A stretch of DNA of 64,000 bases from Salinispira sp. (GTDB lineage Bacteria > Spirochaetota > Spirochaetia > DSM-27196 > Salinispiraceae): NCBI GenBank assembly GCA_965602015.1, contig OZ271918.1, positions 2,432,001-2,496,000 on the forward strand, read 5' to 3'. Under the pieces are notes generated by a model. It searched no databases. It saw only the letters and a program-made list of their open reading frames with translations, and was not told where the DNA came from. Positions within the stretch are counted from its first letter, which is position 1. The number at the start of each line of letters is the position of its first letter. This document shows, one piece after another, positions 10,929 to 23,465 of the stretch. Made by a program: the position numbers and the translations under genes.

Positions 10929-12395
10929 ATGCGACGCATCACGGTAGCCCGGGGAGACGGTATCGGCCCCGAAATAATGGATGCCACCCTAAAAATACTT
11001 TCTGCCGCCAAAGCGGAAATAGAACCGGACTTTATTGAAATCGGCGAGGCCCAGTACCTCGCCGGCAACACTGCGGGCATCGGCGACGAAGCCTGGGAGA
11101 GCATCAGGAAAAACCGGGTGGTGCTTAAAGCGCCGATTACCACTCCTCAGGGAGGAGGATACAAGAGTCTCAATGTCACAATCAGGAAGACCCTCGGGCT
11201 CTTCGCGAATGTGCGTCCATGCCGCTCGTTCACCCCGTACGTCGAAACCTATCATCCCCATCTGGACGTGGTCATCATCAGGGAAAACGAGGAAGACCTC
11301 TACGCGGGAATCGAACACCGTCAGACCGTCGACGTGACTCAGGCCCTCAAGCTCATTACCAGGCCCGGGAGCGAACGAATAATCCGCTACGCCTTTGAGT
11401 ATGCCCGGGCATACGGCCGAAAAAAGGTTACGGTAATGATAAAAGACAACATCATGAAGATTACCGACGGCATGTTCCACCGCATCTTTCAGGAAATCAT
11501 GAAAGACTATCCCGATATAGAAACCGAACAGCAAATAATCGATATCGGTACCGCGCGGCTGGCGTCGGCCCCGGAACGCTATGATGTGGTGGTGGCCCCG
11601 AATCTTTACGGTGATATTATTTCCGACGTGGTTGCGGAAATATCCGGGTCAGTCGGCATGGCCGGGTCGGCGAATATCGGCCGGGAAACCGCGATGTTCG
11701 AAGCCATCCATGGATCTGCACCGGACATTGCGGGGAAGAAACTGGCCAATCCCTCAGGACTGATAAACGCCTCGGTCATGATGCTTGTTCACCTCGGGAT
11801 GGCCGAGACCGCGGCACGCATCGAGAACGCCTGGCTGAAGACCATTGAAGACGGAATACACACTGCGGAAATCTACTCGGAGAGCCACAGCAGCCATTTG
11901 GCAAACACCGATGAATTTGCCGACGCGGTCATCGAACGGCTGGGAAGCGGCCCGAAATTCTTTCACGGGGCGGAATTTTCTCTTGAAGCCAAACCGATAG
12001 CGGTGGCGGACTATGTCCGCCCGGATGTCGAAAAGGTGCTGGTAGGGGTGGACGTCTTTCTCGACGACCGAAGCCGTACCCCTGATGAGCTGGGTCAGGC
12101 CCTCGAGCAAATTGCGGCGGCCTGCCGGAGCGAAATTATTCTCAAGGTGATTACCAACCGCGGCGTCAAGGTGTACCCCAAGGGATTTCCCGAGACCTTC
12201 ATTACCGATCACTGGCGCTGCCGCTTCACGTTGAAGGGTGTTCTTCCCAGCGAACCGGCGCCCGGCGCATTGGACGCCGAGTCGGTCATTGAACTTCAGC
12301 AGCTGTTACTTGGAGCCGGTCTCGAAGTGATCAAGACTGAGAATCTGTATTTCTTTGACGGGAAACCCGGCTACTCGCTGGCGCAGGGTGAGTAA
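10929..12395 (+). CDS. icd: NADP-dependent isocitrate dehydrogenase (Thermus/Rickettsia-type with C-terminal extension)
   Basis: GDGIGPEI, KAPITTPQGGGYKSLNV, NLYGDIISD, EAIHGSAPDIAG, TDHWRCRF. Confidence 0.93.
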   Translation: MRRITVARGDGIGPEIMDATLKILSAAKAEIEPDFIEIGEAQYLAGNTAGIGDEAWESIRKNRVVLKAPITTPQGGGYKSLNVTIRKTLGLFANVRPCRSFTPYVETYHPHLDVVIIRENEEDLYAGIEHRQTVDVTQALKLITRPGSERIIRYAFEYARAYGRKKVTVMIKDNIMKITDGMFHRIFQEIMKDYPDIETEQQIIDIGTARLASAPERYDVVVAPNLYGDIISDVVAEISGSVGMAGSANIGRETAMFEAIHGSAPDIAGKKLANPSGLINASVMMLVHLGMAETAARIENAWLKTIEDGIHTAEIYSESHSSHLANTDEFADAVIERLGSGPKFFHGAEFSLEAKPIAVADYVRPDVEKVLVGVDVFLDDRSRTPDELGQALEQIAAACRSEIILKVITNRGVKVYPKGFPETFITDHWRCRFTLKGVLPSEPAPGALDAESVIELQQLLLGAGLEVIKTENLYFFDGKPGYSLAQGE

Positions 12396-14718
12396 CAGCT
12401 TCAGGGTTTGAGTCGGGGGTTTTACCCGCGCCGGCTTCGTCGGCATTCCCGGAGGTTTCGGGCTTTTCGTCAACCGCTTCCTCCGCCTCTTCGCCGGGGC
12501 GGGTGAGCGGCAGGACGAACCAGAACTCGCTGCCGTCGCCCGGCGAGGACGTGAAACCCGCCTCCCCTCCCTGGGCTTCCACGAGTTTACGGCTAATTGC
12601 GAGGCCTAATCCTGTACCCTCGATATCCCGCACATTAAACGTGCGGCCGAATTCCCTGAAAATGAGGTGATGCTCCGCGGGATCAATGCCGATCCCCTGG
12701 TCCCGTACGGAAAAGCGCAGCAGTTCGCGGTTGCGACGGATAACCACCTCAACGGCAAGCTCTACGGTTCCCGAGTCGCTGTATTTAACCGCATTGCTGA
12801 GGAAATTCATAAGTATCTGTTTGACCCGGTAATGGTCAACAACGATTCTCTCGGGGACGTCGGAGGCAATTTGCCGGCTTAGCTCGAGAAGGGCGGTTTT
12901 TCCTTTGGCCCGGCAATAGCTCTCGCCGTGTACCATCGCGTAATTAATTATCTCGCTGAGGCTGCATTCTTCCGGGTGGATATCGATCGATCCCGATTCG
13001 ATTCGGGAAAGGTTGATAACGTCATCGACGATGTGAATCAGGGTCTTTCCCGCCTCGCTGATGTTGCGGTACGCCTTCAGCTTGCCCCGTTCTTCCTCTC
13101 CGATGAGGGCCTCGAGTTTGGCCATGACCGCCCGGGTTTCCTCCATCTCCTGCTTGTTGAGGTTTTTCGATTCCATGCTGTCTGCAAGCTTCCTGTGGAG
13201 ATAATACATGGCGTTCGAGTCTTCAAACAGAAAGTCCCTGATTCCCGCAAGCTCGGCCGGGGCCTTGTCTCCGAGCTTTTCTGACAATTCCTCCAGGAGA
13301 ACCGCCATATCGTCGTTTTTATCGTAGGCCCCGTAGCTCAAAAGGTCGGTAATGCCGCTGATGCTGTTCAGCGGCGTGCGAAACTCGTGATTCATATTCA
13401 CCAGGAACTTCGACTTGTGAACGTTGGCCATTTCCGCGCGGACTCTGGCGGCTTCGGCTTCCTGGGTGCGCTCCCGCACCTTGTCTTCAAGATTCTGCGC
13501 GTACTCGAGAATCTCCCGCCGCTGTTGACGGATCTTGTCGAGGCTGACGGTAAGTTCCCGGGCGAGCAGGTTGAAGCTTCCGGCAAGATCGCCGATCTCG
13601 TCATTGCTGTGAACCGGCAGCTCGTCGAATCCCCGTTCGCTGCCTATGCTTTTGCGCAGGTTCTCGACTCCTTGGTTGAGATTGATGATCGGCGCGACCA
13701 CGTACATGGTGATCAGCAGGCTCATCAACAGGACCAGAATAAAGAGGGCTGAAATTATTACCCAGAGGTATTCGATTTCCTCAGGAGCCCCGAGTTCCTG
13801 GCGGGGTATGGAAACCTGAGCCAGGAGCAGTTCGTCCCGGGTTTGGAGCAGGGGTAGATAGCCTGAAAGTTCCTGGCGCTCGGCATTTTCCAGGGTCGCG
13901 ATGAACTCCGCATCAAAAAAAAGCCGGGAATCCTGACCCGCTTCGCTGTCCGATTGTGTGAGAAACTCGCCAAAATTTCGCATGGCTTCCGGGGGGAGGC
14001 TGATACTTTCAATGCGTTCGGCATATTCATTGATTGCTGTGGAAAAAAACACCGGAACCGTCAGGCGCTCGGGCGGGCTGCCAAGAAGCTCCGCGGTTCG
14101 AACCGAGTAGATGCTGGTTTTCATTCCCGACACCCTTCGAAGAGCATCGAATACGTATGAATCGACGCTTGACTGCACAAGCACAAAATCCGGCTCTTCG
14201 GAACTGCGCTGCCGCCGAAACCCGTTCATGAGCACAATGCGCCCGTCGTCAAAACTGATGCGCTGCAGCGAAGGGCCCTCGCTGTTGAGGTATTCGGGCA
14301 AATCTTCTGGCTCGGGAAAAAATACCGGCAGGACGGCTTCGGGGGGGCAGCATTCGAACGAGCTGTCGTACAGGCTTGCGCCGTCTCTTTGGGCAATAAA
14401 AACACCTCTGCCCTCGCCGAGGATTCGATCCTCACGGGTGAGGGATTCGATGAGAAAATCACCGCTGTCTCCCACTGCCCGGGAAAAGGCAAAGAGGCTG
14501 CGCCACTCCTCATCCAGCAGCGCCAAAAGGCTCGTGCGGCCATACTCGAGATTTGCCATCCGGTTTTGCAGGTTTATGTCGTCGAATTGCTGCTTAACAT
14601 ATACCGCCACTATAGCCGCGGGTACGACCATGACGGCGAGAAAAATTATCGCAAGCTTGACCAGAAGCGAGAGCCGCAGATTCCCCATAAACCTGAGTAT
14701 ACCATCATTCGCGTTCAT
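12331..14718 (-). CDS. Membrane sensor histidine kinase (periplasmic domain, HAMP, HisKA with insertion, HATPase_c)
   Basis: Two TM helices, HAMP (NDEIGDLAGSFN), H-box NHEFRTPLN, N-box NFLSNAVKY, G1 DQGIGI, G2 GTGLGL. Confidence 0.93.
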   Translation of the reverse strand: MNANDGILRFMGNLRLSLLVKLAIIFLAVMVVPAAIVAVYVKQQFDDINLQNRMANLEYGRTSLLALLDEEWRSLFAFSRAVGDSGDFLIESLTREDRILGEGRGVFIAQRDGASLYDSSFECCPPEAVLPVFFPEPEDLPEYLNSEGPSLQRISFDDGRIVLMNGFRRQRSSEEPDFVLVQSSVDSYVFDALRRVSGMKTSIYSVRTAELLGSPPERLTVPVFFSTAINEYAERIESISLPPEAMRNFGEFLTQSDSEAGQDSRLFFDAEFIATLENAERQELSGYLPLLQTRDELLLAQVSIPRQELGAPEEIEYLWVIISALFILVLLMSLLITMYVVAPIINLNQGVENLRKSIGSERGFDELPVHSNDEIGDLAGSFNLLARELTVSLDKIRQQRREILEYAQNLEDKVRERTQEAEAARVRAEMANVHKSKFLVNMNHEFRTPLNSISGITDLLSYGAYDKNDDMAVLLEELSEKLGDKAPAELAGIRDFLFEDSNAMYYLHRKLADSMESKNLNKQEMEETRAVMAKLEALIGEEERGKLKAYRNISEAGKTLIHIVDDVINLSRIESGSIDIHPEECSLSEIINYAMVHGESYCRAKGKTALLELSRQIASDVPERIVVDHYRVKQILMNFLSNAVKYSDSGTVELAVEVVIRRNRELLRFSVRDQGIGIDPAEHHLIFREFGRTFNVRDIEGTGLGLAISRKLVEAQGGEAGFTSSPGDGSEFWFVLPLTRPGEEAEEAVDEKPETSGNADEAGAGKTPDSNPEAVTHPAPASSRVSRQRNTDSQS

Positions 14719-14732
14719 TGTGCATCGCTCCC

Positions 14733-16370
14733 CTAATCGAGAATAAGCCTGATGCGTTGTCCATACGCAGATGGATCGATGTTTTCCTCCTCGAGATAGG
14801 CGAGAAAGACCGGAAGCAGGCTGTCGGCATGCTGGGTAATCACCGGAAACGATGAAAACTGATCATAGCCGTCTCCTCCGCTATAGAGGTAGCTGGTAAT
14901 AGTGACCTGATAAATATCAAGAGTATCGATGGGACTCCCGCCTATTTCCACCCGCTCGGGATTTATGAAATACCCTGCGCCGTCTTCTTCAATCGAAAAG
15001 CGAAGCCCGGATGCCTGGAGGAAACCCTTCTCATTTTCTGGGTCGCCGAAATAGCTAACCGACTGGCGAAGCACATCGAGGATATCCTCCCCGGACATTT
15101 CGATAGAATAAAGCCCGGACTCGAAAGGCAGGAGACTGTAGGCGTCGAAGAGACTAACCGGTCCTGCGGGTAGGTCTCCCCTTATAGAGCCCGAATTGAT
15201 TAGGGCGATATCCGCACCGCTGTAGTCGCGGATGGCATCGCTGATCAGATCCGCCACACCGGAGGGACCGGAAAATCGATGCTCAAGGTCCACGGGCATG
15301 TCCGCAATTTCGGTGTTGAGCTGAGATTCCGAAGCCTGCCGTATGCTGAAAAGAAGTTCGCTAATTTCTTCATCCGGTTCGATGAGGTCCGACCGGAGGG
15401 GAAACTCGTCATATGCCGTCGGACGGCTGTTTCGCACCATCATCCGGTCCATGGTTAACGCATTGTCGCTGCGCCGGTCGTCAACCAGCACCAGCCGTCC
15501 ATGCCAATGGGTGTAGTCCTGCCATGCCGGAATCGCATCCCGGCTAGCCGGCAGGGGATACCAGGGGAGCCGGGGCTGCGGTGCAAGTCCGTCAACCGGC
15601 AGATCCCTCTCGCCGAGAATGAGTAGATCGATAAACTCAAACTCCTCAAGCTCGTCAAGGATGGAGTTTCCGTCGTCGTTGCTTAATTTATGGCTGACGG
15701 CGTTGACTACAATGAACGGGCGCTCGATAGACGGTTCCTGCTCAGCGCGTATTGCCGTCGAATGCTCCGAGGAAAAACGCCGAAGCGCGTCGCGCACCGC
15801 GGCCCCGGGACTGATGAGGTTGAGGCCCGCAACATTTGCCGGGAGATTGCGGGTAATCAGGTTGGGACTGGACAGTCCGATAATAAGCACATTGCTTTCC
15901 CTATCGTAATAGTACGGCTCCAGATAGGGAGGAATTCCGCCGTCAGATGCTTGTCGCAAATTCGCGGACACAAAGGGGAACTCGGCTAACTGGGCCAGCT
16001 CGGCCAGCCTCTGGGTTCCGTAATAAAATTCCCGGGAATCAGCCACCAGCACATCGCAGCCGAGATAATTAAGCAGGTCGATAATGTTTTCACCACGGGA
16101 AAAGTAGGCCGCGGGAGTCCCGTGGATGATATTGTTATCGGCCATAAAAATTGTCGGCTCGGAACCCCGTCTCAAACTGCCGAGCTGAGAGCTTATAAGG
16201 CTGAATCCCCCCTGCCTCAAATCCTGCCCTTCAATGGTTTCGCTGAAAATGGTTCCCTTGAGGGCGTGTATGCTGATGATGTCAAAGTTAGGGGAAAAGT
16301 CCTGCTGACACGAGAGGAAAAGACCCAGCAGGGCCACAAGCGCCAGAAGCGCCGGTTTATTTATCCTCAC
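14733..16370 (-). CDS. 5'-nucleotidase/UshA-fold lipoprotein, apparently catalytically degenerate
   Basis: Lipobox LFLSC; FPFVSANL, NSGSIRGD, LPFE and GGDGY of the 5'-nucleotidase family; metallophosphoesterase motifs altered (see findings). Confidence 0.85.
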   Translation of the reverse strand: MRINKPALLALVALLGLFLSCQQDFSPNFDIISIHALKGTIFSETIEGQDLRQGGFSLISSQLGSLRRGSEPTIFMADNNIIHGTPAAYFSRGENIIDLLNYLGCDVLVADSREFYYGTQRLAELAQLAEFPFVSANLRQASDGGIPPYLEPYYYDRESNVLIIGLSSPNLITRNLPANVAGLNLISPGAAVRDALRRFSSEHSTAIRAEQEPSIERPFIVVNAVSHKLSNDDGNSILDELEEFEFIDLLILGERDLPVDGLAPQPRLPWYPLPASRDAIPAWQDYTHWHGRLVLVDDRRSDNALTMDRMMVRNSRPTAYDEFPLRSDLIEPDEEISELLFSIRQASESQLNTEIADMPVDLEHRFSGPSGVADLISDAIRDYSGADIALINSGSIRGDLPAGPVSLFDAYSLLPFESGLYSIEMSGEDILDVLRQSVSYFGDPENEKGFLQASGLRFSIEEDGAGYFINPERVEIGGSPIDTLDIYQVTITSYLYSGGDGYDQFSSFPVITQHADSLLPVFLAYLEEENIDPSAYGQRIRLILD

Positions 16371-16569
16371 TTAGTATGCTTTCCTCAATGGTCTTAAAAA
16401 AACTGTCCATGTTTGAACGGATTTTCTCCAGGAACTCTTCCTTTTCATCCTCGGCCATATCGTCCATGGCGCCGAGGCACAAAAGGTCTATGAGTCCCTT
16501 GAGCCGATTCATGTTTTCCCGAAGGAGGAAATCCGCCTCTTCCTTGTAGAGTTTCCCGAGTTTGCTCAT
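16357..16569 (-). CDS. Small HisKA/DHp-like protein lacking the phosphoacceptor His
   Basis: 70 aa; overlaps both neighbours (TGATG coupling upstream). DFLLRENMNRLKGLIDLLCLGAMD aligns with the kinase segment NHEFRTPLNSISGITDLLSYGAYD. Confidence 0.75.
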   Translation of the reverse strand: MSKLGKLYKEEADFLLRENMNRLKGLIDLLCLGAMDDMAEDEKEEFLEKIRSNMDSFFKTIEESILSEDK

Positions 16570-17006
16570 CAGCCCAACCCCATCCGCTGCCTGATTTTTT
16601 CCGGTATGCTCAGACCGAGCACCGTACTGATTTTCTGAAGCATTTCCGACTGATTGATCGGTTTGGTTATATATTCGGAGAACCCCGCCCTCAGGCAGCG
16701 GTCCCGGTCGGATTCCATACCGTCATGGGCGTCCATTGCCTGGGCGGTGACCGCCCAAATCGGGGTGTCCCGGAACTCAGGCAGGGTGCGGATGACCTTG
16801 ACCACCTCTATGCCCGAATCCTCCCGCTCCATCTTCACATCCATGAGAATGAGATCGGGCTTTTCATTTCTAATGATTTCCACGGATTTTACACCCTCCG
16901 ATGCTTCGAGGATGACGACGCCGGCTTTGGGCCCGAACAGCCTGAGCAGGGTTTTGAGAACATATCTGTTGGATTCCAGGTCATCGACAATCAATACTTT
17001 CGGCAT
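16569..17006 (-). CDS. Single-domain response regulator (DivK/CheY-like receiver)
   Basis: VLIVDD, DLILMD (phospho-Asp), AVTA, YITKP; ATG 17006 follows a GGAGG RBS. Confidence 0.92.
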   Translation of the reverse strand: MPKVLIVDDLESNRYVLKTLLRLFGPKAGVVILEASEGVKSVEIIRNEKPDLILMDVKMEREDSGIEVVKVIRTLPEFRDTPIWAVTAQAMDAHDGMESDRDRCLRAGFSEYITKPINQSEMLQKISTVLGLSIPEKIRQRMGLG

Positions 17007-17025: not shown

Positions 17026-17733
17026 CTATATGCTATTATAAATTTGCAGTTTTTTCCACAAGGAATCATCCTGGACCGGTCTGGGGTCGGCGATTATGTC
17101 CATCTCTTCCCGGGAAACCGGATGAGTGAAGCTGAGGCGCCGGGCGTGAAGGCTGATCCCCCCCTGCGGGTTGCTTCTCTTGGCTCCGTATTTTAAATCA
17201 CCCCGAATATGAACGCCCAAGGTTTCAAGCTGAGCGCGGATCTGGTGATGCCGCCCGCTGTGCAGGCGAATTTCGAGCAGGTGGTAGCGCTCCGCGCTGT
17301 GAATCAGGCGGTAATCGAGGGACGCGGCCTTGCGCCGGGGGCCGTCGGAATCGAAGGCCTTGGACTTGTTGGTTTTAGCATTTTTTACGAGGAAATGCTC
17401 CAGCCGCCCCTCGACCGAGGGCGGCAGAGCGTCAACCAGGGCCCAATAGTATTTCCCCACGCCTGAGCCCGCGAAGAGACTGTTCATCCGGCTCAGGGCC
17501 TTGGATGTTTTGGCCAGGAGCAGAACCCCGCTGGTCGGGCGATCAAGGCGATGAATAAGGCCGAGAAAGGCATTGCCCGGTTTACCGTCCCGGATGCGGA
17601 TGAAGTCCCTGACCTCTTCAAGGAGCGGGCGGTCCCCGCTTTTATCGCCCTGAACCAGTTCGGAGCACGCCTTGTTGACCGCAATGAGGTGATTATCCTC
17701 GAAGAGAATCCGCTCTCCGATTCCTCCTACCAT
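17026..17733 (-). CDS. RluA-family pseudouridine synthase (no S4 domain)
   Basis: EDNHLIAVNK, HRLDRPTSG, GRHHQIR, GDLKYG, LHARRL. Confidence 0.93.
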   Translation of the reverse strand: MVGGIGERILFEDNHLIAVNKACSELVQGDKSGDRPLLEEVRDFIRIRDGKPGNAFLGLIHRLDRPTSGVLLLAKTSKALSRMNSLFAGSGVGKYYWALVDALPPSVEGRLEHFLVKNAKTNKSKAFDSDGPRRKAASLDYRLIHSAERYHLLEIRLHSGRHHQIRAQLETLGVHIRGDLKYGAKRSNPQGGISLHARRLSFTHPVSREEMDIIADPRPVQDDSLWKKLQIYNSI

Positions 17734-19712
17734 TGAACCGCCTGGAGAAGATATTCGCCCCGGCCTTCTTCGTAGTAGGGCATGACCACCAGGGTGTAGA
17801 CTCCGCTTTCTTCCACCGTAAAATCAATCCGGGAGTTGCTTCCGTCGTAGTCATCGTTTTCCAAAAACGCCTCGCCGTCGGGGTCATTTATATACAACCT
17901 GGTGTCGAAACTGTCGGATTCCACCGTTATGCTTACCGATTGACCCTCTACAAGCTCGATTTCCTCAATGTCAAAGCGGGTGCCCCGGATATCCCGCTGG
18001 TCGCTGCTGTCGATGCTGCCGCTAATCTGCAGAATGATGTTTGCCCGGCCGCCGGAGCTGTAGCTCACTTCGTACGCCCCGATGCTGTTGCTGAAGGCCT
18101 GGGCGACCAACTGATACACCCCGGTAACCGGAGCTATCAGCTCGAGGAGTGAATTCAGGTTTTCCAGTCCGTCGTCATTGCTGAATTCCTGTCCGTTGGG
18201 AGCCACGAGGGTGAGATAGGTATCGAGGTCCTCGGAAATCATGGTAATTCGAATCTGATTCCCCTCTTCGGCATAGATACTGTACAGGTCGCCGGGGCCG
18301 ACGTCGTAGATTTCTTCGGTACCGGTGATGGCCGCGGTAATGGTTTCATCGAGGGCGATCTCGTAACCGTCGGGATACTCTTCCATGCTGCCCAGTTGAG
18401 AAGGCCGGGTCCGCAATATATACTCGCCGCCGCCGGAACCGGAAAAGGAGCTCACGCCGATGGTAATTGTTCCCTGTTCTTCAAAAAAGTAGCTGAGCAC
18501 TGAGGCATAAATGTACTCTTCCAGGTAGGAGTCGTCGTCGAAGTAGCTGTTTCCCCTGCTGTCGGTGACGCTGAGATAGGTGTCAAAATCATCGCTCAGC
18601 AGTTCGACGACGACGAAATCTCCGGCGTTGCCCGAGAGCTCATAGCGGGTCTGGCCGCTCAACCGACCCCGGATCTCCTCATTCAGGGCGATAGTTTGGG
18701 GTCTGGAAACCAGCAGTTCAAAGCCGCCCCCGCCGCTGCCCCATGACGCCGCTTCTACGATAATCTCGTCTCCCGCTTCGAGATTGACGCTGAGCACAGA
18801 ATTGCTTCCGTCGCCGCCGTCATCGTCCTGAAGCTCCAGGCCGTCGGGACCGGTGACGCGCAGGACCGTGTCGAATTCCTGGCTGTTCATAAAAATCGTG
18901 AAGGATCCGCTTTCCGGGGCGACAAAGCTGTAGTACAGCGGCGCCCCGACAAGCCGGCCCCTGGTGATCCCCGAGGCCGATAATCGGGCCGGTTCGCCCA
19001 ACTCTTCAACAGTGAGGAAATAGCTTCCCCGGGACTCCCCTCCGAAGGAGGACGCGCCGACCAGAAGGTCCTGGTCCTGGCTGAAGGTGAGTACCGCGAT
19101 GCTGTCGCTGCCATCGCCGTCGTCCCAGCTTCGCAGCTGTCCGTCGGGGTAGCGGATATACAGGTACGCGTCAAAATCGCCGGACTCCAGAATGAGCTGA
19201 AGCCTGTCGCCGGCGCTTACCGCGAGGGGGTACCAGTTCACTATCCTGCCGGCTTCGCTGTCCACGGGAAGATCGGATGAAAGGGTTCCGCGCCTGGTCT
19301 GGCCGGGCTGAAGCGCCTCGTTGCCGCTGCTTCTGCTGACTTTGAGGAAGAACGAACCAGTGCCGTCAGATCGGGCATCGACGTACCCCACGGCAATACG
19401 CATGGTACCGCTTTCAAAGGCGAACTGGGTGACTGCCGCCTGGGAGCCCGTTCCCATGATTCCGCTGGAAAGCCCCGACGGACTGATAACCTCCAGATAA
19501 GGGGTGAAATCCAGGCTGATGGCTTCGATTGAAAGGTAATCGCCTTCGCGCACCTCGATGCTGTACCATTGCAGCTCGGACTGGCCATCCCCTCCCCGTC
19601 GGACGCTGATCTCGCCTGAGATATCAAGCAGTTCCTCCTGACCAAAAAGCGGTGAAGAAATCACCAGCAGTGCGAGAAGGGCGGTTTTGAGTACGTTGTT
19701 GAATTGTTTCAT
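17727..19712 (-). CDS. Secreted protein made of about six PPC (pre-peptidase C-terminal)-like repeats
   Basis: Signal peptide plus six repeats of S-x-DFD-x-YL...(PDG)...DDD...NS. Confidence 0.8.
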   Translation of the reverse strand: MKQFNNVLKTALLALLVISSPLFGQEELLDISGEISVRRGGDGQSELQWYSIEVREGDYLSIEAISLDFTPYLEVISPSGLSSGIMGTGSQAAVTQFAFESGTMRIAVGYVDARSDGTGSFFLKVSRSSGNEALQPGQTRRGTLSSDLPVDSEAGRIVNWYPLAVSAGDRLQLILESGDFDAYLYIRYPDGQLRSWDDGDGSDSIAVLTFSQDQDLLVGASSFGGESRGSYFLTVEELGEPARLSASGITRGRLVGAPLYYSFVAPESGSFTIFMNSQEFDTVLRVTGPDGLELQDDDGGDGSNSVLSVNLEAGDEIIVEAASWGSGGGGFELLVSRPQTIALNEEIRGRLSGQTRYELSGNAGDFVVVELLSDDFDTYLSVTDSRGNSYFDDDSYLEEYIYASVLSYFFEEQGTITIGVSSFSGSGGGEYILRTRPSQLGSMEEYPDGYEIALDETITAAITGTEEIYDVGPGDLYSIYAEEGNQIRITMISEDLDTYLTLVAPNGQEFSNDDGLENLNSLLELIAPVTGVYQLVAQAFSNSIGAYEVSYSSGGRANIILQISGSIDSSDQRDIRGTRFDIEEIELVEGQSVSITVESDSFDTRLYINDPDGEAFLENDDYDGSNSRIDFTVEESGVYTLVVMPYYEEGRGEYLLQAVQW

Positions 19713-20649: not shown

Positions 20650-21828
20650 ATGTCCATAAATCATGCAAATCAACAAGACATAAACCCCTCTCGCCCAAAC
20701 TCAGATGCCCGCGACCGGGAAGTAACCGTCGGGCCGGAAGAAAGCGGGCAGCGGCTGGACCGCTGGCTGGCTGAGCGGTTTCCCCAGCTCAGCCGACGGG
20801 GCTGGCAGGAAAAAATCAGGGACGGTTTAGTGCTGGTAAACGGCCTCCGCTCTGAAAAGGGACGCACTCTTCGCCCCGGTGAAGAGGTCGAAATAGCAGA
20901 GTCCCCGGCCGGAAGGCAGATTTCGACCACCTCGAATCCCGCCGGCCGGGAACCGGCGCACGGGGCATCGGCACATGTGCCCGTGTTGTACACAGACCAG
21001 TGGATAGTGGCGGTGGATAAACCAAAAGGACTGCCCTGCCATCCCCTCAACGGCGGAGAATCCCCCTCCCAGCAAACAGCCCTCAATCTTGCGGCGGACC
21101 TTGACCCGGCGGTGTTGATAGAGCCCGATGGCACCCAAAGCGGGCGGCTGTCGGAGTCCGATATTATGCGGATTCGGCGGGAAGGCGGCCTTTTACACCG
21201 GCTGGACAACGACAGCAGCGGTGTGCTGCTCTTTGCCAGAAGCATTGAGGCCTGGCTGGCCTTCCGCGATGAAATCCAGGGCCGGACTAGCTCCGCAAAA
21301 AAGCACTACCTGGCGCGCTGCTGGGCCGGCGACCGGGTTGCCGACCGGCCGCTCGGTGAACCGGCTGCCGGCCCGGTCGCCGAACTGCTCGCCGAAATAG
21401 CCGCCGGCCCGGGAAGAATAATAAACTATCCGATAGCCCACAGCTCCAGGCGATCGTCGGGCAAAATGATTGCCGTCAAACCCGGTACACAAAAATCAGA
21501 ATACCGGGGCAGCCCGCGCAGCGGGGAAACCGGAATACTCTCCGCCTGCCTCACCGATGAGCCCAGCTGCCTGGTCCTTGCGGAGATCACCCGGGGTCAG
21601 CGGCATCAGATACGCTGTCATTTGGCAGCGGCGGGTCTGCCGCTGGTGGGCGACAGTCTCTACGGCGGTGAACCGGGAGATTTCCTGCTGCATCACAGCC
21701 GCCTGGATTTTTACCATCCATATCTCGGGAAACGGATAGCAATAGAATCAATGCCGGCAAAAGGCCGCTTCGCCGACAGTGAGATTGCTGAATTATGTAA
21801 GGAGATGTTCAGGAAAGCACAGCCCTGA
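20650..21828 (+). CDS. RluA/RluD-family pseudouridine synthase with S4 domain
   Basis: GQRLDRWLA S4 domain, VDKPKGL, HRLDNDSSG, GQRHQIRCH, GDSLYG. Confidence 0.9.
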   Translation: MSINHANQQDINPSRPNSDARDREVTVGPEESGQRLDRWLAERFPQLSRRGWQEKIRDGLVLVNGLRSEKGRTLRPGEEVEIAESPAGRQISTTSNPAGREPAHGASAHVPVLYTDQWIVAVDKPKGLPCHPLNGGESPSQQTALNLAADLDPAVLIEPDGTQSGRLSESDIMRIRREGGLLHRLDNDSSGVLLFARSIEAWLAFRDEIQGRTSSAKKHYLARCWAGDRVADRPLGEPAAGPVAELLAEIAAGPGRIINYPIAHSSRRSSGKMIAVKPGTQKSEYRGSPRSGETGILSACLTDEPSCLVLAEITRGQRHQIRCHLAAAGLPLVGDSLYGGEPGDFLLHHSRLDFYHPYLGKRIAIESMPAKGRFADSEIAELCKEMFRKAQP

Positions 21829-22171
21829 CGGTATTGACCAGGGTGTGTTCTTCCACCGGCTTGGTAAGGTAGGCCTGAGGATCGGTTTTCGCAGCCCGCC
21901 CCTTGGTTGCCGGATCGCTGTGGGCGGTCACATAGACCACGGGAATGTCCCGAAAGAGCTTAACGCGCTTTACCGCGTCCACGCCGTCGATGAAGCTGTT
22001 TATCCGAATATCCATGAGAATGAGGTCGGGGTGATGCTCCATAACCGATGATATGACTTCGTCGCCGCTGTCGATGACGTCGGCTATGTGATATCCGTAG
22101 CGCTCCAGGGTATCCTGCATGGCCAGGCCGACAAGAGCTTCGTCTTCGACAATTAATACTTTCTTACACAT
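21809..22171 (-). CDS. Single-domain response regulator
   Basis: VLIVEDE, DLILMDI, VTAHSD, YLTKP. Confidence 0.92.
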   Translation of the reverse strand: MCKKVLIVEDEALVGLAMQDTLERYGYHIADVIDSGDEVISSVMEHHPDLILMDIRINSFIDGVDAVKRVKLFRDIPVVYVTAHSDPATKGRAAKTDPQAYLTKPVEEHTLVNTVRAVLS

Positions 22172-22298
22172 GGTTATTTCCCCGCGGCGGCCTGGATGTA
22201 ATCCGGCGGCCTGTAAAAAGTATACTGATTTTCAGTAAAGAAAACAGTATTCTTGCCGGCGGGATGCGGATAATTGCCGAAAATAATACTACAGTATC

Positions 22299-23465
22299 AT
22301 GGATATGCGTTTTCCCTTAAACATCCACCATATTCAGGACCATCTCTTTCGCCGGCACCGGTGGCTGGTGCTGCTGGTTTCAAGCGCTTTGTATGCCGGC
22401 GGAATATTACTCTTCGGTCCGCAGCTGAGAGTTTCATCGAACTACCTGGTCGCATTGCCGGTAATTGCCGCGGCCATGGGTTTTGGGTTTTGGGGAGGGT
22501 TCTCGGCGGGAATGCTCGGGTTGCCGGTAAATCTCATCCTGTTTTCCCTCATCGGTTACCCGCAGTTCGCCCCGGAAAGTCTCATAATCGCCGAAGTATT
22601 CGGAATACTCGTGGGGGGCTCCATGGGAGCTCTGGGCGATTACTTCAGAATTCTCAATGAGGAAATCCGCCACAATCAACGCATCGCCAACGAACTTCAG
22701 CAGCAGATCAGCGACAGGGAGGTCCTGATTCAGGAGGTTCACCACCGGGTTAAAAATAACCTGACCCTTATCCTCAGCCTGCTTCAGCTGCAGAGAAATC
22801 AGTTCGACAGCCCGGAATACCGCAACGCCCTTGAAATCGTTTCAGCCCGAATCAGGGCGATCGCCTCGGTTCACGACTATATCTATACCCATGAAACCAG
22901 CACCTCGGTTAACCTCCAGCGTCACCTGCCGGCACTCTGCGAGGCGATAATCGAGAGCCATCAGATTCCGGAAATCAGCTTCCATCACGATGTGCAATTT
23001 AAAACCGGTATCTCACTGCAGAAGGCCACCCCCCTCAGCCTGATAATCCTGGAGATTCTCACCAACTCCTGCAAGCACGCGTTCTCTTCGGAACACGGGG
23101 ACCCCAGAATCTTCCTCTACGGCAGGGAGACTGCAAATGAGTATATATTGATAATTTCTGACAATGGAGCGGTCGCACACGGCGTTTCACCGCTGTCCGA
23201 CAACGCAGCGGCGGTGGCACGGACGGAACGTACAGCCGCAGCGGGCGCAAAAGGCGGCCTGGGATCCACAATTATCAAGGCCCTGACAAGACAGATTCGG
23301 GCGGATCTTATTGTAAACACCGATAAAGGCTATGAATACGTGCTGAAAATTCGAAAATCCGGCCAACCGTTTATGGCGGCGCCGGAAGCGCCTTCGCGGG
23401 CGGGACGCCTGGACCCCGAACCCGAAGAAGAGGGCCGAAATCGGCGCCCCCCTATTTCGCGCTGA
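22299..23465 (+). CDS. Membrane sensor histidine kinase, HisKA_2 (PdtaS-like)
   Basis: N-terminal TM helices, EVHHRVKNNL H-box, EILTNSCKHAF, DNG, GLG; divergent from a receiver gene. Confidence 0.9.
   Translation: MDMRFPLNIHHIQDHLFRRHRWLVLLVSSALYAGGILLFGPQLRVSSNYLVALPVIAAAMGFGFWGGFSAGMLGLPVNLILFSLIGYPQFAPESLIIAEVFGILVGGSMGALGDYFRILNEEIRHNQRIANELQQQISDREVLIQEVHHRVKNNLTLILSLLQLQRNQFDSPEYRNALEIVSARIRAIASVHDYIYTHETSTSVNLQRHLPALCEAIIESHQIPEISFHHDVQFKTGISLQKATPLSLIILEILTNSCKHAFSSEHGDPRIFLYGRETANEYILIISDNGAVAHGVSPLSDNAAAVARTERTAAAGAKGGLGSTIIKALTRQIRADLIVNTDKGYEYVLKIRKSGQPFMAAPEAPSRAGRLDPEPEEEGRNRRPPISR

Follow-up and report, generated by a model that had tools for sequence, protein, structure and literature searches.

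The 64,000-nt window analysed in this work (positions 2,432,001–2,496,000 of contig OZ271918.1, assembly GCA_965602015.1, from the spirochaete Salinispira sp.) carries a compact cluster of four genes, which an earlier note had put forward as a nucleotide-sensing operon. They code for a single-domain receiver, a microprotein resembling the dimerization and histidine phosphotransfer (DHp) domain of histidine kinases without its His, a pseudo-5′-nucleotidase predicted to be a lipoprotein, and a membrane histidine kinase, of which two regions are also listed:

16569–17006, minus strand: single-domain response regulator (receiver), 145 amino acids (aa); Pfam Response_reg
16357–16569, minus strand: putative His-less DHp microprotein, 70 aa; profile comparison, conserved residues and complex model with the receiver
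14733–16370, minus strand: pseudo-5′-nucleotidase, predicted lipoprotein, 545 aa, GTG start; Pfam, alignment and structure model
12331–14718, minus strand: membrane histidine kinase, 795 aa; Pfam HAMP, HisKA and HATPase_c
13768–14595, minus strand: periplasmic sensor domain of the kinase, probably Cache-like; hhalign, alignment and ESM Atlas lead
13099–13317, minus strand: helical insert of ~75 aa between DHp helices 1 and 2 of the kinase; 13 aligned kinases and model

The stop codon of the receiver gene and the start codon of the microprotein gene are joined as TGATG (16571–16567), the open reading frames (ORFs) of the microprotein and the nucleotidase-like protein share 14 bp (16357–16370), and a gap of 14 bp (14719–14732) precedes the kinase gene. 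The arrangement of four same-strand, overlapping or nearly contiguous genes given in the earlier note was therefore recovered in all its ORFs and junctions, as was its observation of two dead folds, the nucleotidase keeping none of seven metal-binding or catalytic residues and the microprotein reading as a DHp domain without the His.

The microprotein occurs in five of seven relatives of the same family (55–83 % identity), and the order PPC-repeat protein, RluA-type pseudouridine synthase, receiver, microprotein is identical in all five (genomes G001, G002, G003, G005 and G007). The nucleotidase and kinase genes then continue the array in G002 and G005 and, across two contigs, in G001; in G003 the microprotein gene is followed directly by the kinase gene, without a nucleotidase, and the locus of G007 stops at a contig edge. 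A search of 33 genomes from other families of the order gave a single microprotein match, at E 0.07; the closest named homologs are from Salinispira pacifica and Spirochaeta lutea. Co-conservation of the gene neighbourhood, on which the earlier proposal depends, holds for the four genes within one family, but beyond this family the two halves occur apart. The cluster is a family-specific union of two separately travelling modules, real and conserved. A scan for promoters and terminators did no better than chance (4 vs. 3.7; 6 vs. 8.2).

The pseudo-5′-nucleotidase and its probable membrane partners

A Pfam scan of the nucleotidase-like protein matched only 5_nucleotid_C and found no Metallophos domain. 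At the seven columns occupied by metal ligands and catalytic residues in an intact homolog, it has A36, K38, N80, S112, R113, N223 and E254, the last two in a looser part of the alignment; the UshA numbering of the metal-ligand columns is the one we presume. The substrate pocket is retained, with R397 in the Arg410 column and F416 and Y502 in the columns of Phe429 and Phe498. The accessible part of PMC7922932 describes the catalytic His117, Phe429, Phe498 and the hinge rotation of UshA, with the purine stacked at the Phe429 and Phe498 positions. The structure model of the protein (predicted local distance difference test, pLDDT, 91.7; predicted template modelling score, pTM, 0.88) matches UshA and CD73 and has the two-domain UshA fold (Foldseek, best E 5.5e-36, TM 0.53–0.73). 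A lipobox-like LFLSC, containing Cys21, points to a lipoprotein, and the Cys after the signal stretch is invariant in 23 of 23 sequences. By alignment and model, the predicted lipoprotein is catalytically degenerate, with its metal ligands lost and its base pocket and fold kept.

In an unrooted tree of 86 single-unit proteins of 440–620 aa (longer matches were excluded), the window's nucleotidase falls within a clade (support 0.996) comprising 26 rows, 23 of them distinct; each has zero or one of the seven ligands, and the His117 column is Arg throughout. The pocket of this main ligand-less clade has Arg in the Arg410 column in 23 of 24 sequences, and the aromatic and Tyr positions are kept in 24 of 24 each. 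Dead nucleotidases linked to GGDEF proteins neighbour the clade on a long branch (support 0.81). No second nucleotidase copy was found in the genome of the window, and a metagenome scan with this single nucleotidase gave 212 pattern matches and no relative. Outside the main clade there are other nucleotidase groups with 0–3 of the seven ligands (P0083, P0105, P0133, P0147, P0151, P0154, P0158, P0159, P0185, P0187 and P0202).

Neighbouring genes were compared in 107 nucleotidase loci (79 and 28 from two retrievals, excluding the window's own locus and that of G002), of which 31 are ligand-less, 73 are intact and three were set aside (one truncated, two intermediate). Every one of the 31 ligand-less nucleotidases has a same-strand gene 0–123 nt downstream, which in 26 loci codes for a protein with two transmembrane (TM) segments and a kinase domain (19 loci) or a GGDEF domain (seven loci), the remaining five being cut at the end of the contig or locus. 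By the same test, such a protein was found among none of 69 downstream and none of 65 upstream neighbours of intact nucleotidases, one of which lies 285 nt from a HATPase fragment of 108 aa. The kinase-linked records include Ca. Delongbacteria, a Bacteroidia metagenome-assembled genome (MAG), a Thermodesulfobacteriota MAG and Spirochaetales, and the cyclase-linked ones include Paraglaciecola and Pseudoalteromonas. The proposal that the lipoprotein is tied to a membrane kinase gains from this linkage (26 of 31 dead vs. 0 of 69 intact nucleotidases), a count weakened by two points: the 31 loci do not count as independent, since they fall into 11 clusters at 60 % and seven at 45 % identity, and ligand-less loci were retrieved with clade-specific patterns. 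The same linkage argues against the explanation that the nucleotidase is active by other chemistry, or is a decaying passenger, and that its clustering is incidental. The RluA gene also sits in the unit without an evident link, as this explanation would have it, but the loss of all seven ligands goes together with full-length frames in several phyla and with conserved replacement residues, and we consider it highly improbable.

Several of these loci have features of their own. In seven of them, from Paraglaciecola, Pseudoalteromonas and related records (L134:3506–6606, L140, L148, L155, L156, L130 and L149), the gene directly next to the dead nucleotidase codes for a GGDEF protein with two TM segments, the GGEEF motif intact (7/7) and an unrelated sensor domain; their culturable hosts would offer the easiest test case. 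The kinases that follow the nucleotidase in L104, L114, L116 and L117 are HAMP-HisKA-HATPase-REC-cyclase hybrids of ~1000 aa. A second dead nucleotidase in contig C31 of G005 (L018:6000–9747) precedes a HAMP-HisKA protein with a degenerate-looking ATP-binding domain (no Pfam HATPase_c). Most loci of the Delongbacteria group (L097–L110, e.g. L097:3477–6974) have an ORF of ~1160 aa at most 27 nt before the dead nucleotidase, without a Pfam match in the one scanned.

The kinase of the window has TM segments at residues 23–41 and 318–336, which bound a periplasmic region (42–317), followed by a HAMP, a DHp and a catalytic/ATP-binding (CA) domain. Its H box, HEFRT, has an acid at H+1, Thr at H+4 and a His (His444) invariant in 13 of 13 aligned kinases; together with the N, G1, F and G2 boxes of the CA domain, these features place it in HisKA class I. 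The last ~50 aa are not conserved. The sensor domain gave no match in Pfam and no sequence match in the PDB (best E 0.016); ESM Atlas puts it near Cache families, as a lead only, and it is probably Cache-like. A second spirochaete group has a sensor domain to which that of the window group aligns (hhalign 78 %, E 1.9e-5) and which in turn aligns to that of the Delongbacteria group (97 %); a S/T-T-x-x-D-x-Y/F-G motif is common to all three. Genome G003 (95 % complete) has the receiver, the microprotein and the kinase core and gave no nucleotidase match; its kinase has a different sensor, in which the shared stretch is missing and which fails to align to the others. From these sequence comparisons, we read the dead nucleotidase and its dedicated sensor domain as an input cassette attached to different kinase cores. 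Against this reading stand the direct alignment of the window and Delongbacteria sensor domains, which is not significant (hhalign 0.8 %), and the fact that the negative from G003 is a single sequence.

Gene linkage indicates partnership and says nothing about the ligand. The lipoprotein could also be a dedicated regulator of the kinase that responds to another ligand, or a ligand-blind clamp, for which YfiR and WalH provide an analogy. This would be in keeping with the N-domain pocket residues, which vary between sub-clades, and with the Arg379 column, which is not kept: it is Phe here and variable within the clade, so that phosphate binding may be weaker or different, a point that counts against nucleotide sensing. 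Nevertheless, nearly all ligand-less loci retain both the aromatic sandwich and the Arg410 column, and the aromatic positions are those that stack the purine in UshA (accessible part of PMC7922932). We regard a regulator that does not sense nucleotides as unlikely.

The His-less DHp domain and the receiver

The insert of the kinase, of ~75 aa at about residues 468–540, is present in all 13 aligned kinases and helical in the model. No solved counterpart was found among the top fold matches, the best solved ones being ordinary cores of about 230–240 aa, and the sensor regions of kinases with the insert vary (7TM-DISM with PAS, PAS, HAMP-PAS, binding-protein-like). The kinases that have this three-helix insert in the DHp loop form a clade defined by it and are here called insert kinases.

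The microprotein has no match in Pfam or NCBIfam, its family has no sequence match in the PDB (best E 0.37), and HisKA is weakly matched in four of 20 family members (best E 0.092). With unedited profiles its similarity to DHp domains is weak (hhalign E 0.02 and 0.003, over 25–26 columns). When the insert columns are removed, it aligns to the DHp of its cognate kinase with a probability of 79 % (E 1.5e-5) and a score of 29.4, compared with a maximum of 21.1 in 60 shuffles and 15.2 for generic DHps, although the insert boundaries were chosen by the analyst, which detracts from this result. It retains N(+7), G(+11), D(+14) and L(+15) of the kinase. The His site is Tyr in 34 of 44 family members and Phe in the other ten, including the window's (F14); R17 (Arg at H+3, 44/44), D28 and G33 are invariant. 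An acid is not conserved at H+1, Glu occupies H+4 in 43 of 44 (E18), and 43 of 44 have N, S or T at position 21, 20 of them Asn. The homology of the microprotein to DHp is moderate, and this His-less DHp appears to derive from the kinase of its own clade.

Searches of 401 genomes of the phylum with the microprotein profile gave 26 matches at E 0.01, 15 of them below 1e-5; the 11 weak ones (E 7.7e-4 to 0.0096) were discarded as helical noise. In 14 loci outside the family, the domain is the N-terminal part of five PP2C proteins, eight HD-GYP proteins and one split cyclase protein. A protein search in which 8000 candidates were scored identified 37 longer proteins with the domain (21 HD-GYP, 13 SpoIIE, two cyclase and one NifU_N), the Pfam families of the fusion partners being SpoIIE, HD_5 and Guanylate_cyc. 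Two cases were set apart: the seemingly standalone copy in G183 belongs to a cyclase fusion interrupted by an in-frame stop (intact form in P0050) and was not counted as a free microprotein, and P0047, with NifU_N on a 1-kb contig, is probably chimeric and was given no weight. No second copy of the domain was found in the genome of the window. ESM Atlas matches for 16357–16569 comprise clusters of unnamed proteins of 63–83 aa in Planctomycetota, Calditrichota and Chloroflexota, one of them with HisKA in 35 % of its members, which suggests that free DHp-like microproteins also occur in other phyla.

The receiver has D8, D9, D56, T87 and K115 intact, none of which varies among the 25 family members aligned, and bears a family-specific C-terminal extension. 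It forms its own spirochaete family, present in 16 of the 401 genomes (nine candidates scored per genome). The designation DivK-like, used in the earlier note, is apt for a single-domain receiver with intact residues, but orthology to DivK was not found: only the DVU0259/DivK model matched, with 40.4 bits against a cut-off of 160.

All 15 genomes with the domain carry the receiver, and the sixteenth receiver genome, without the domain, is 85 % complete. The insert kinase was found in nine of the 401 genomes, all among these 15 and eight of them suppliers of rows to the profile; it was not found in seven receiver-bearing genomes, in which all or nearly all candidates were scored. An obligatory trio of kinase, receiver and domain is rejected on these seven genomes, and the receiver–domain pair emerges as the core. 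In the five PP2C loci the receiver gene is always directly upstream, preceded in four by the insert kinase gene in a tight cluster, the fifth locus ending at a contig edge after the receiver. In G393 (C42:26575–41038), a single receiver gene and a single domain-PP2C gene have five consecutive insert-DHp kinase cores upstream; two of the matches contain a stop.

A complex model of two microproteins and one receiver scored 0.68, the best of three controls scoring 0.00; of the pairs that calibrate such models, 116 of 157 solved and 2 of 215 mismatched ones attained the mark, counts that apply only approximately to this case. The runs share at least 94 % of their contacts, with partner pLDDT of at least 83. 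The modelled interface brings residues 14–37 of the microprotein (helix 1 past the His site) against helix 1, the 115–120 loop and the C-terminal extension of the receiver, which is the usual DHp–receiver interface.

These observations bear on the idea, advanced in the earlier note, that a His-less DHp tunes the kinase. The microprotein would then form dead heterodimers with the DHp of the kinase, or block it, and Sda and RetS are analogous cases of proteins acting on kinases. It is indeed closer to its cognate DHp than to generic ones (29.4 vs. 15.2) and adjoins the kinase gene even where the nucleotidase is missing, in G003. Its distribution, however, departs from this idea, following the receiver (15/15 domain genomes) better than the insert kinase (9/15); in addition, its start overlaps the receiver stop and the domain is N-terminal in three enzyme families. 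An action on the kinase is improbable in our judgement. Because the domain tracks the receiver, is fused to output enzymes and was modelled on the receiver, the microprotein is more likely to lie downstream of the receiver than to tune the kinase, and, by analogy with DivL and DivK and on the complex model, more likely reads or buffers the receiver.

Positions E18 and N21 raise a further explanation, in which the microprotein would be a phosphatase dedicated to the phosphorylated receiver. E-x-x-N is the phosphatase motif of CheC/CheX, both positions are strongly kept in kind (Glu in 43/44; N, S or T in 43/44), and both lie inside the modelled interface. Nonetheless, Asn itself occupies position 21 in only 20 of 44 members and is already invariant in the parent kinases, and there is no HisKA phosphatase motif, which has an acid at H+1 and T/N at H+4 (available portion of PMC12963549). 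DivL, moreover, stabilises DivK~P, from 126 min to over 700 min (PMC4211667, as far as accessible). We consider phosphatase activity quite unlikely, and retain for the microprotein the likelier role of a reader or buffer of the receiver.

A proposed pathway and its relation to known systems

The proposed pathway would start with an extracellular nucleotide or nucleoside, the likely ligand of the catalytically stripped lipoprotein. We lean towards binding of the nucleoside or nucleotide between F416 and Y502, with K38 and R113 in place of the metals at the phosphate and a UshA-type domain rotation as the signal. The lipoprotein probably contacts the sensor domain of the kinase, and phosphotransfer from His444 to Asp56 of the receiver is equally to be expected. 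A dimer of the microprotein is predicted to dock, probably, on the kinase-binding face of the receiver and would hold or buffer it, likely without passing on phosphate. In the fusions of relatives, docking might switch the PP2C, HD-GYP or cyclase enzyme via a coiled coil that continues helix 2. Since the free microprotein has no coiled-coil tail after helix 2 and its genome has no second copy, it would here be a stoichiometric sink, which may set a threshold or shield the phosphorylated receiver from the phosphatase activity of the kinase; the stop–start overlap of the receiver and microprotein genes fits matched amounts. PilZ genes lie beside the kinase gene in G003 and beside the receiver gene in G095 (L033:6371–6832; L084:1965–2297), and together with the HD-GYP fusions they hint at control of cyclic di-GMP (c-di-GMP).

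Taken as a whole, from a nucleotidase receptor gating the kinase, through phosphorylation of the receiver, to its holding or buffering by the microprotein, this explanation is slightly favoured. Several results weigh against it: the insert kinase is missing from six of the 15 domain-bearing genomes, all eight HD-GYP fusion genes lie away from the receiver gene, and no output for the receiver was identified in its own genome. The passing score of the complex model may also stem from likeness to solved DHp–receiver pairs, such as HK853-RR468.

The closest parallel for the microprotein is DivL, which still has its PAS and CA domains and the remainder of the H box. The microprotein, in contrast, is a DHp hairpin alone (70 aa) or ahead of PP2C, HD-GYP or cyclase, with Glu at H+4 and no PAS or CA domain. 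Both have Arg at H+3 and Tyr in place of the phospho-His, the latter in most members of the microprotein family, and the microprotein would also share with DivL a single-domain receiver as partner and the use of the DHp as an input that reads the receiver; in DivL, Tyr550 stands at the His site, Y550F still binds DivK~P, R553A breaks binding, and the PAS domains are required for phospho-selectivity (PMC4211667, accessible part). PsmA also lacks the His and the D/E-x-x-T/N motif, but is a full-length PAS-DHp-CA-REC protein acting on DivIVA, whereas the microprotein has no CA domain (PMC12963549, available portion). As in REC-HD-GYP (RpfG) and REC-PP2C proteins, a kinase would control a second-messenger or PP2C enzyme through a receiver; here, however, receiver and enzyme are distinct proteins, the latter bearing the DHp-like docking domain. 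The main text of a survey of HD-GYP architectures, as far as available, mentions neither HisKA nor DHp (bioRxiv 10.1101/2021.11.05.467447).

The lipoprotein resembles the co-receptors HptA-HptS, LuxP-LuxQ, TorT-TorS and ChvE-VirA (PMC8050422, in the part accessible) in being an extracytoplasmic two-lobed binder whose gene lies beside that of a two-TM kinase, with a sensor domain probably of Cache type. It differs from them in having the UshA/CD73 enzyme fold and not that of a periplasmic binding protein, and the word nucleotidase is absent from the main text of that review, in the part available. With UshA, CD73 and CpdB (PF00149 + PF02872) it shares the two-domain fold, the C-terminal base pocket and the exported location, but the dimetal centre and the catalytic His are replaced. 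The system would operate in the manner of HptA-HptS or LuxP-LuxQ at its input and of DivL-DivK at its output; lacking a binding-protein fold on one side and PAS and CA domains on the other, it is of neither the binding-protein co-receptor nor the DivL type. The view of the earlier note that no system of this composition has been described agrees with the literature searched, in which neither module was found, most subscription papers lying outside its coverage.

It is conceivable, and we propose it tentatively, that the two modules represent an undescribed class of bacterial purinergic receptor, of CD73/UshA type with basic residues for metals, through whose large domain rotation kinases and diguanylate cyclases of several phyla are gated, and an undescribed third two-component element of spirochaetes, a portable His-less DHp through which a free receiver switches PP2C, c-di-GMP phosphodiesterase or cyclase in trans, or which acts as a 70-residue sink. 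Bacterial sensing of extracellular nucleotides is poorly mapped, and the lipoproteins would be a candidate family of soluble receptors whose pocket is predicted and whose hinge motion is known, with links to at least 26 kinases and cyclases that lack an assigned ligand. The His-less DHp, as a minimal DivL-like reader, would account for the way in which orphan single-domain receivers act on output enzymes. Both the lipoprotein and the microprotein, currently annotated as nucleotidase and hypothetical protein, are small and soluble and can be tested directly.

Neighbouring genes in the window

Two genes upstream of the receiver gene, kept in five relatives, were absent from the earlier note, as was the DHp insert of the kinase:

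17026–17733, minus strand: RluA-type pseudouridine synthase; Pfam, same position in G001, G002, G003, G005 and G007
17727–19712, minus strand: PPC-repeat protein; Pfam PPC ×4, same position in the five relatives

The RluA gene sits 19 bp upstream of the receiver gene and is probably on the same transcript, although no role in the signalling system is proposed for it. The PPC-repeat gene is probably the first gene of the unit. Its product has an N-terminal signal-like stretch, gave no peptidase domain in a Pfam scan and, being syntenic in the five relatives, is a possible further extracellular partner. At the other end of the cluster, the acidic, unconserved C-terminal tail of the kinase overlaps the 3′ end of a convergent isocitrate dehydrogenase gene by 65 bp (12331–12395). 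Finally, a second single-domain receiver gene, divergent from that of a HisKA_2 kinase, lies at 21809–23465 and is syntenic in G001 and G002.

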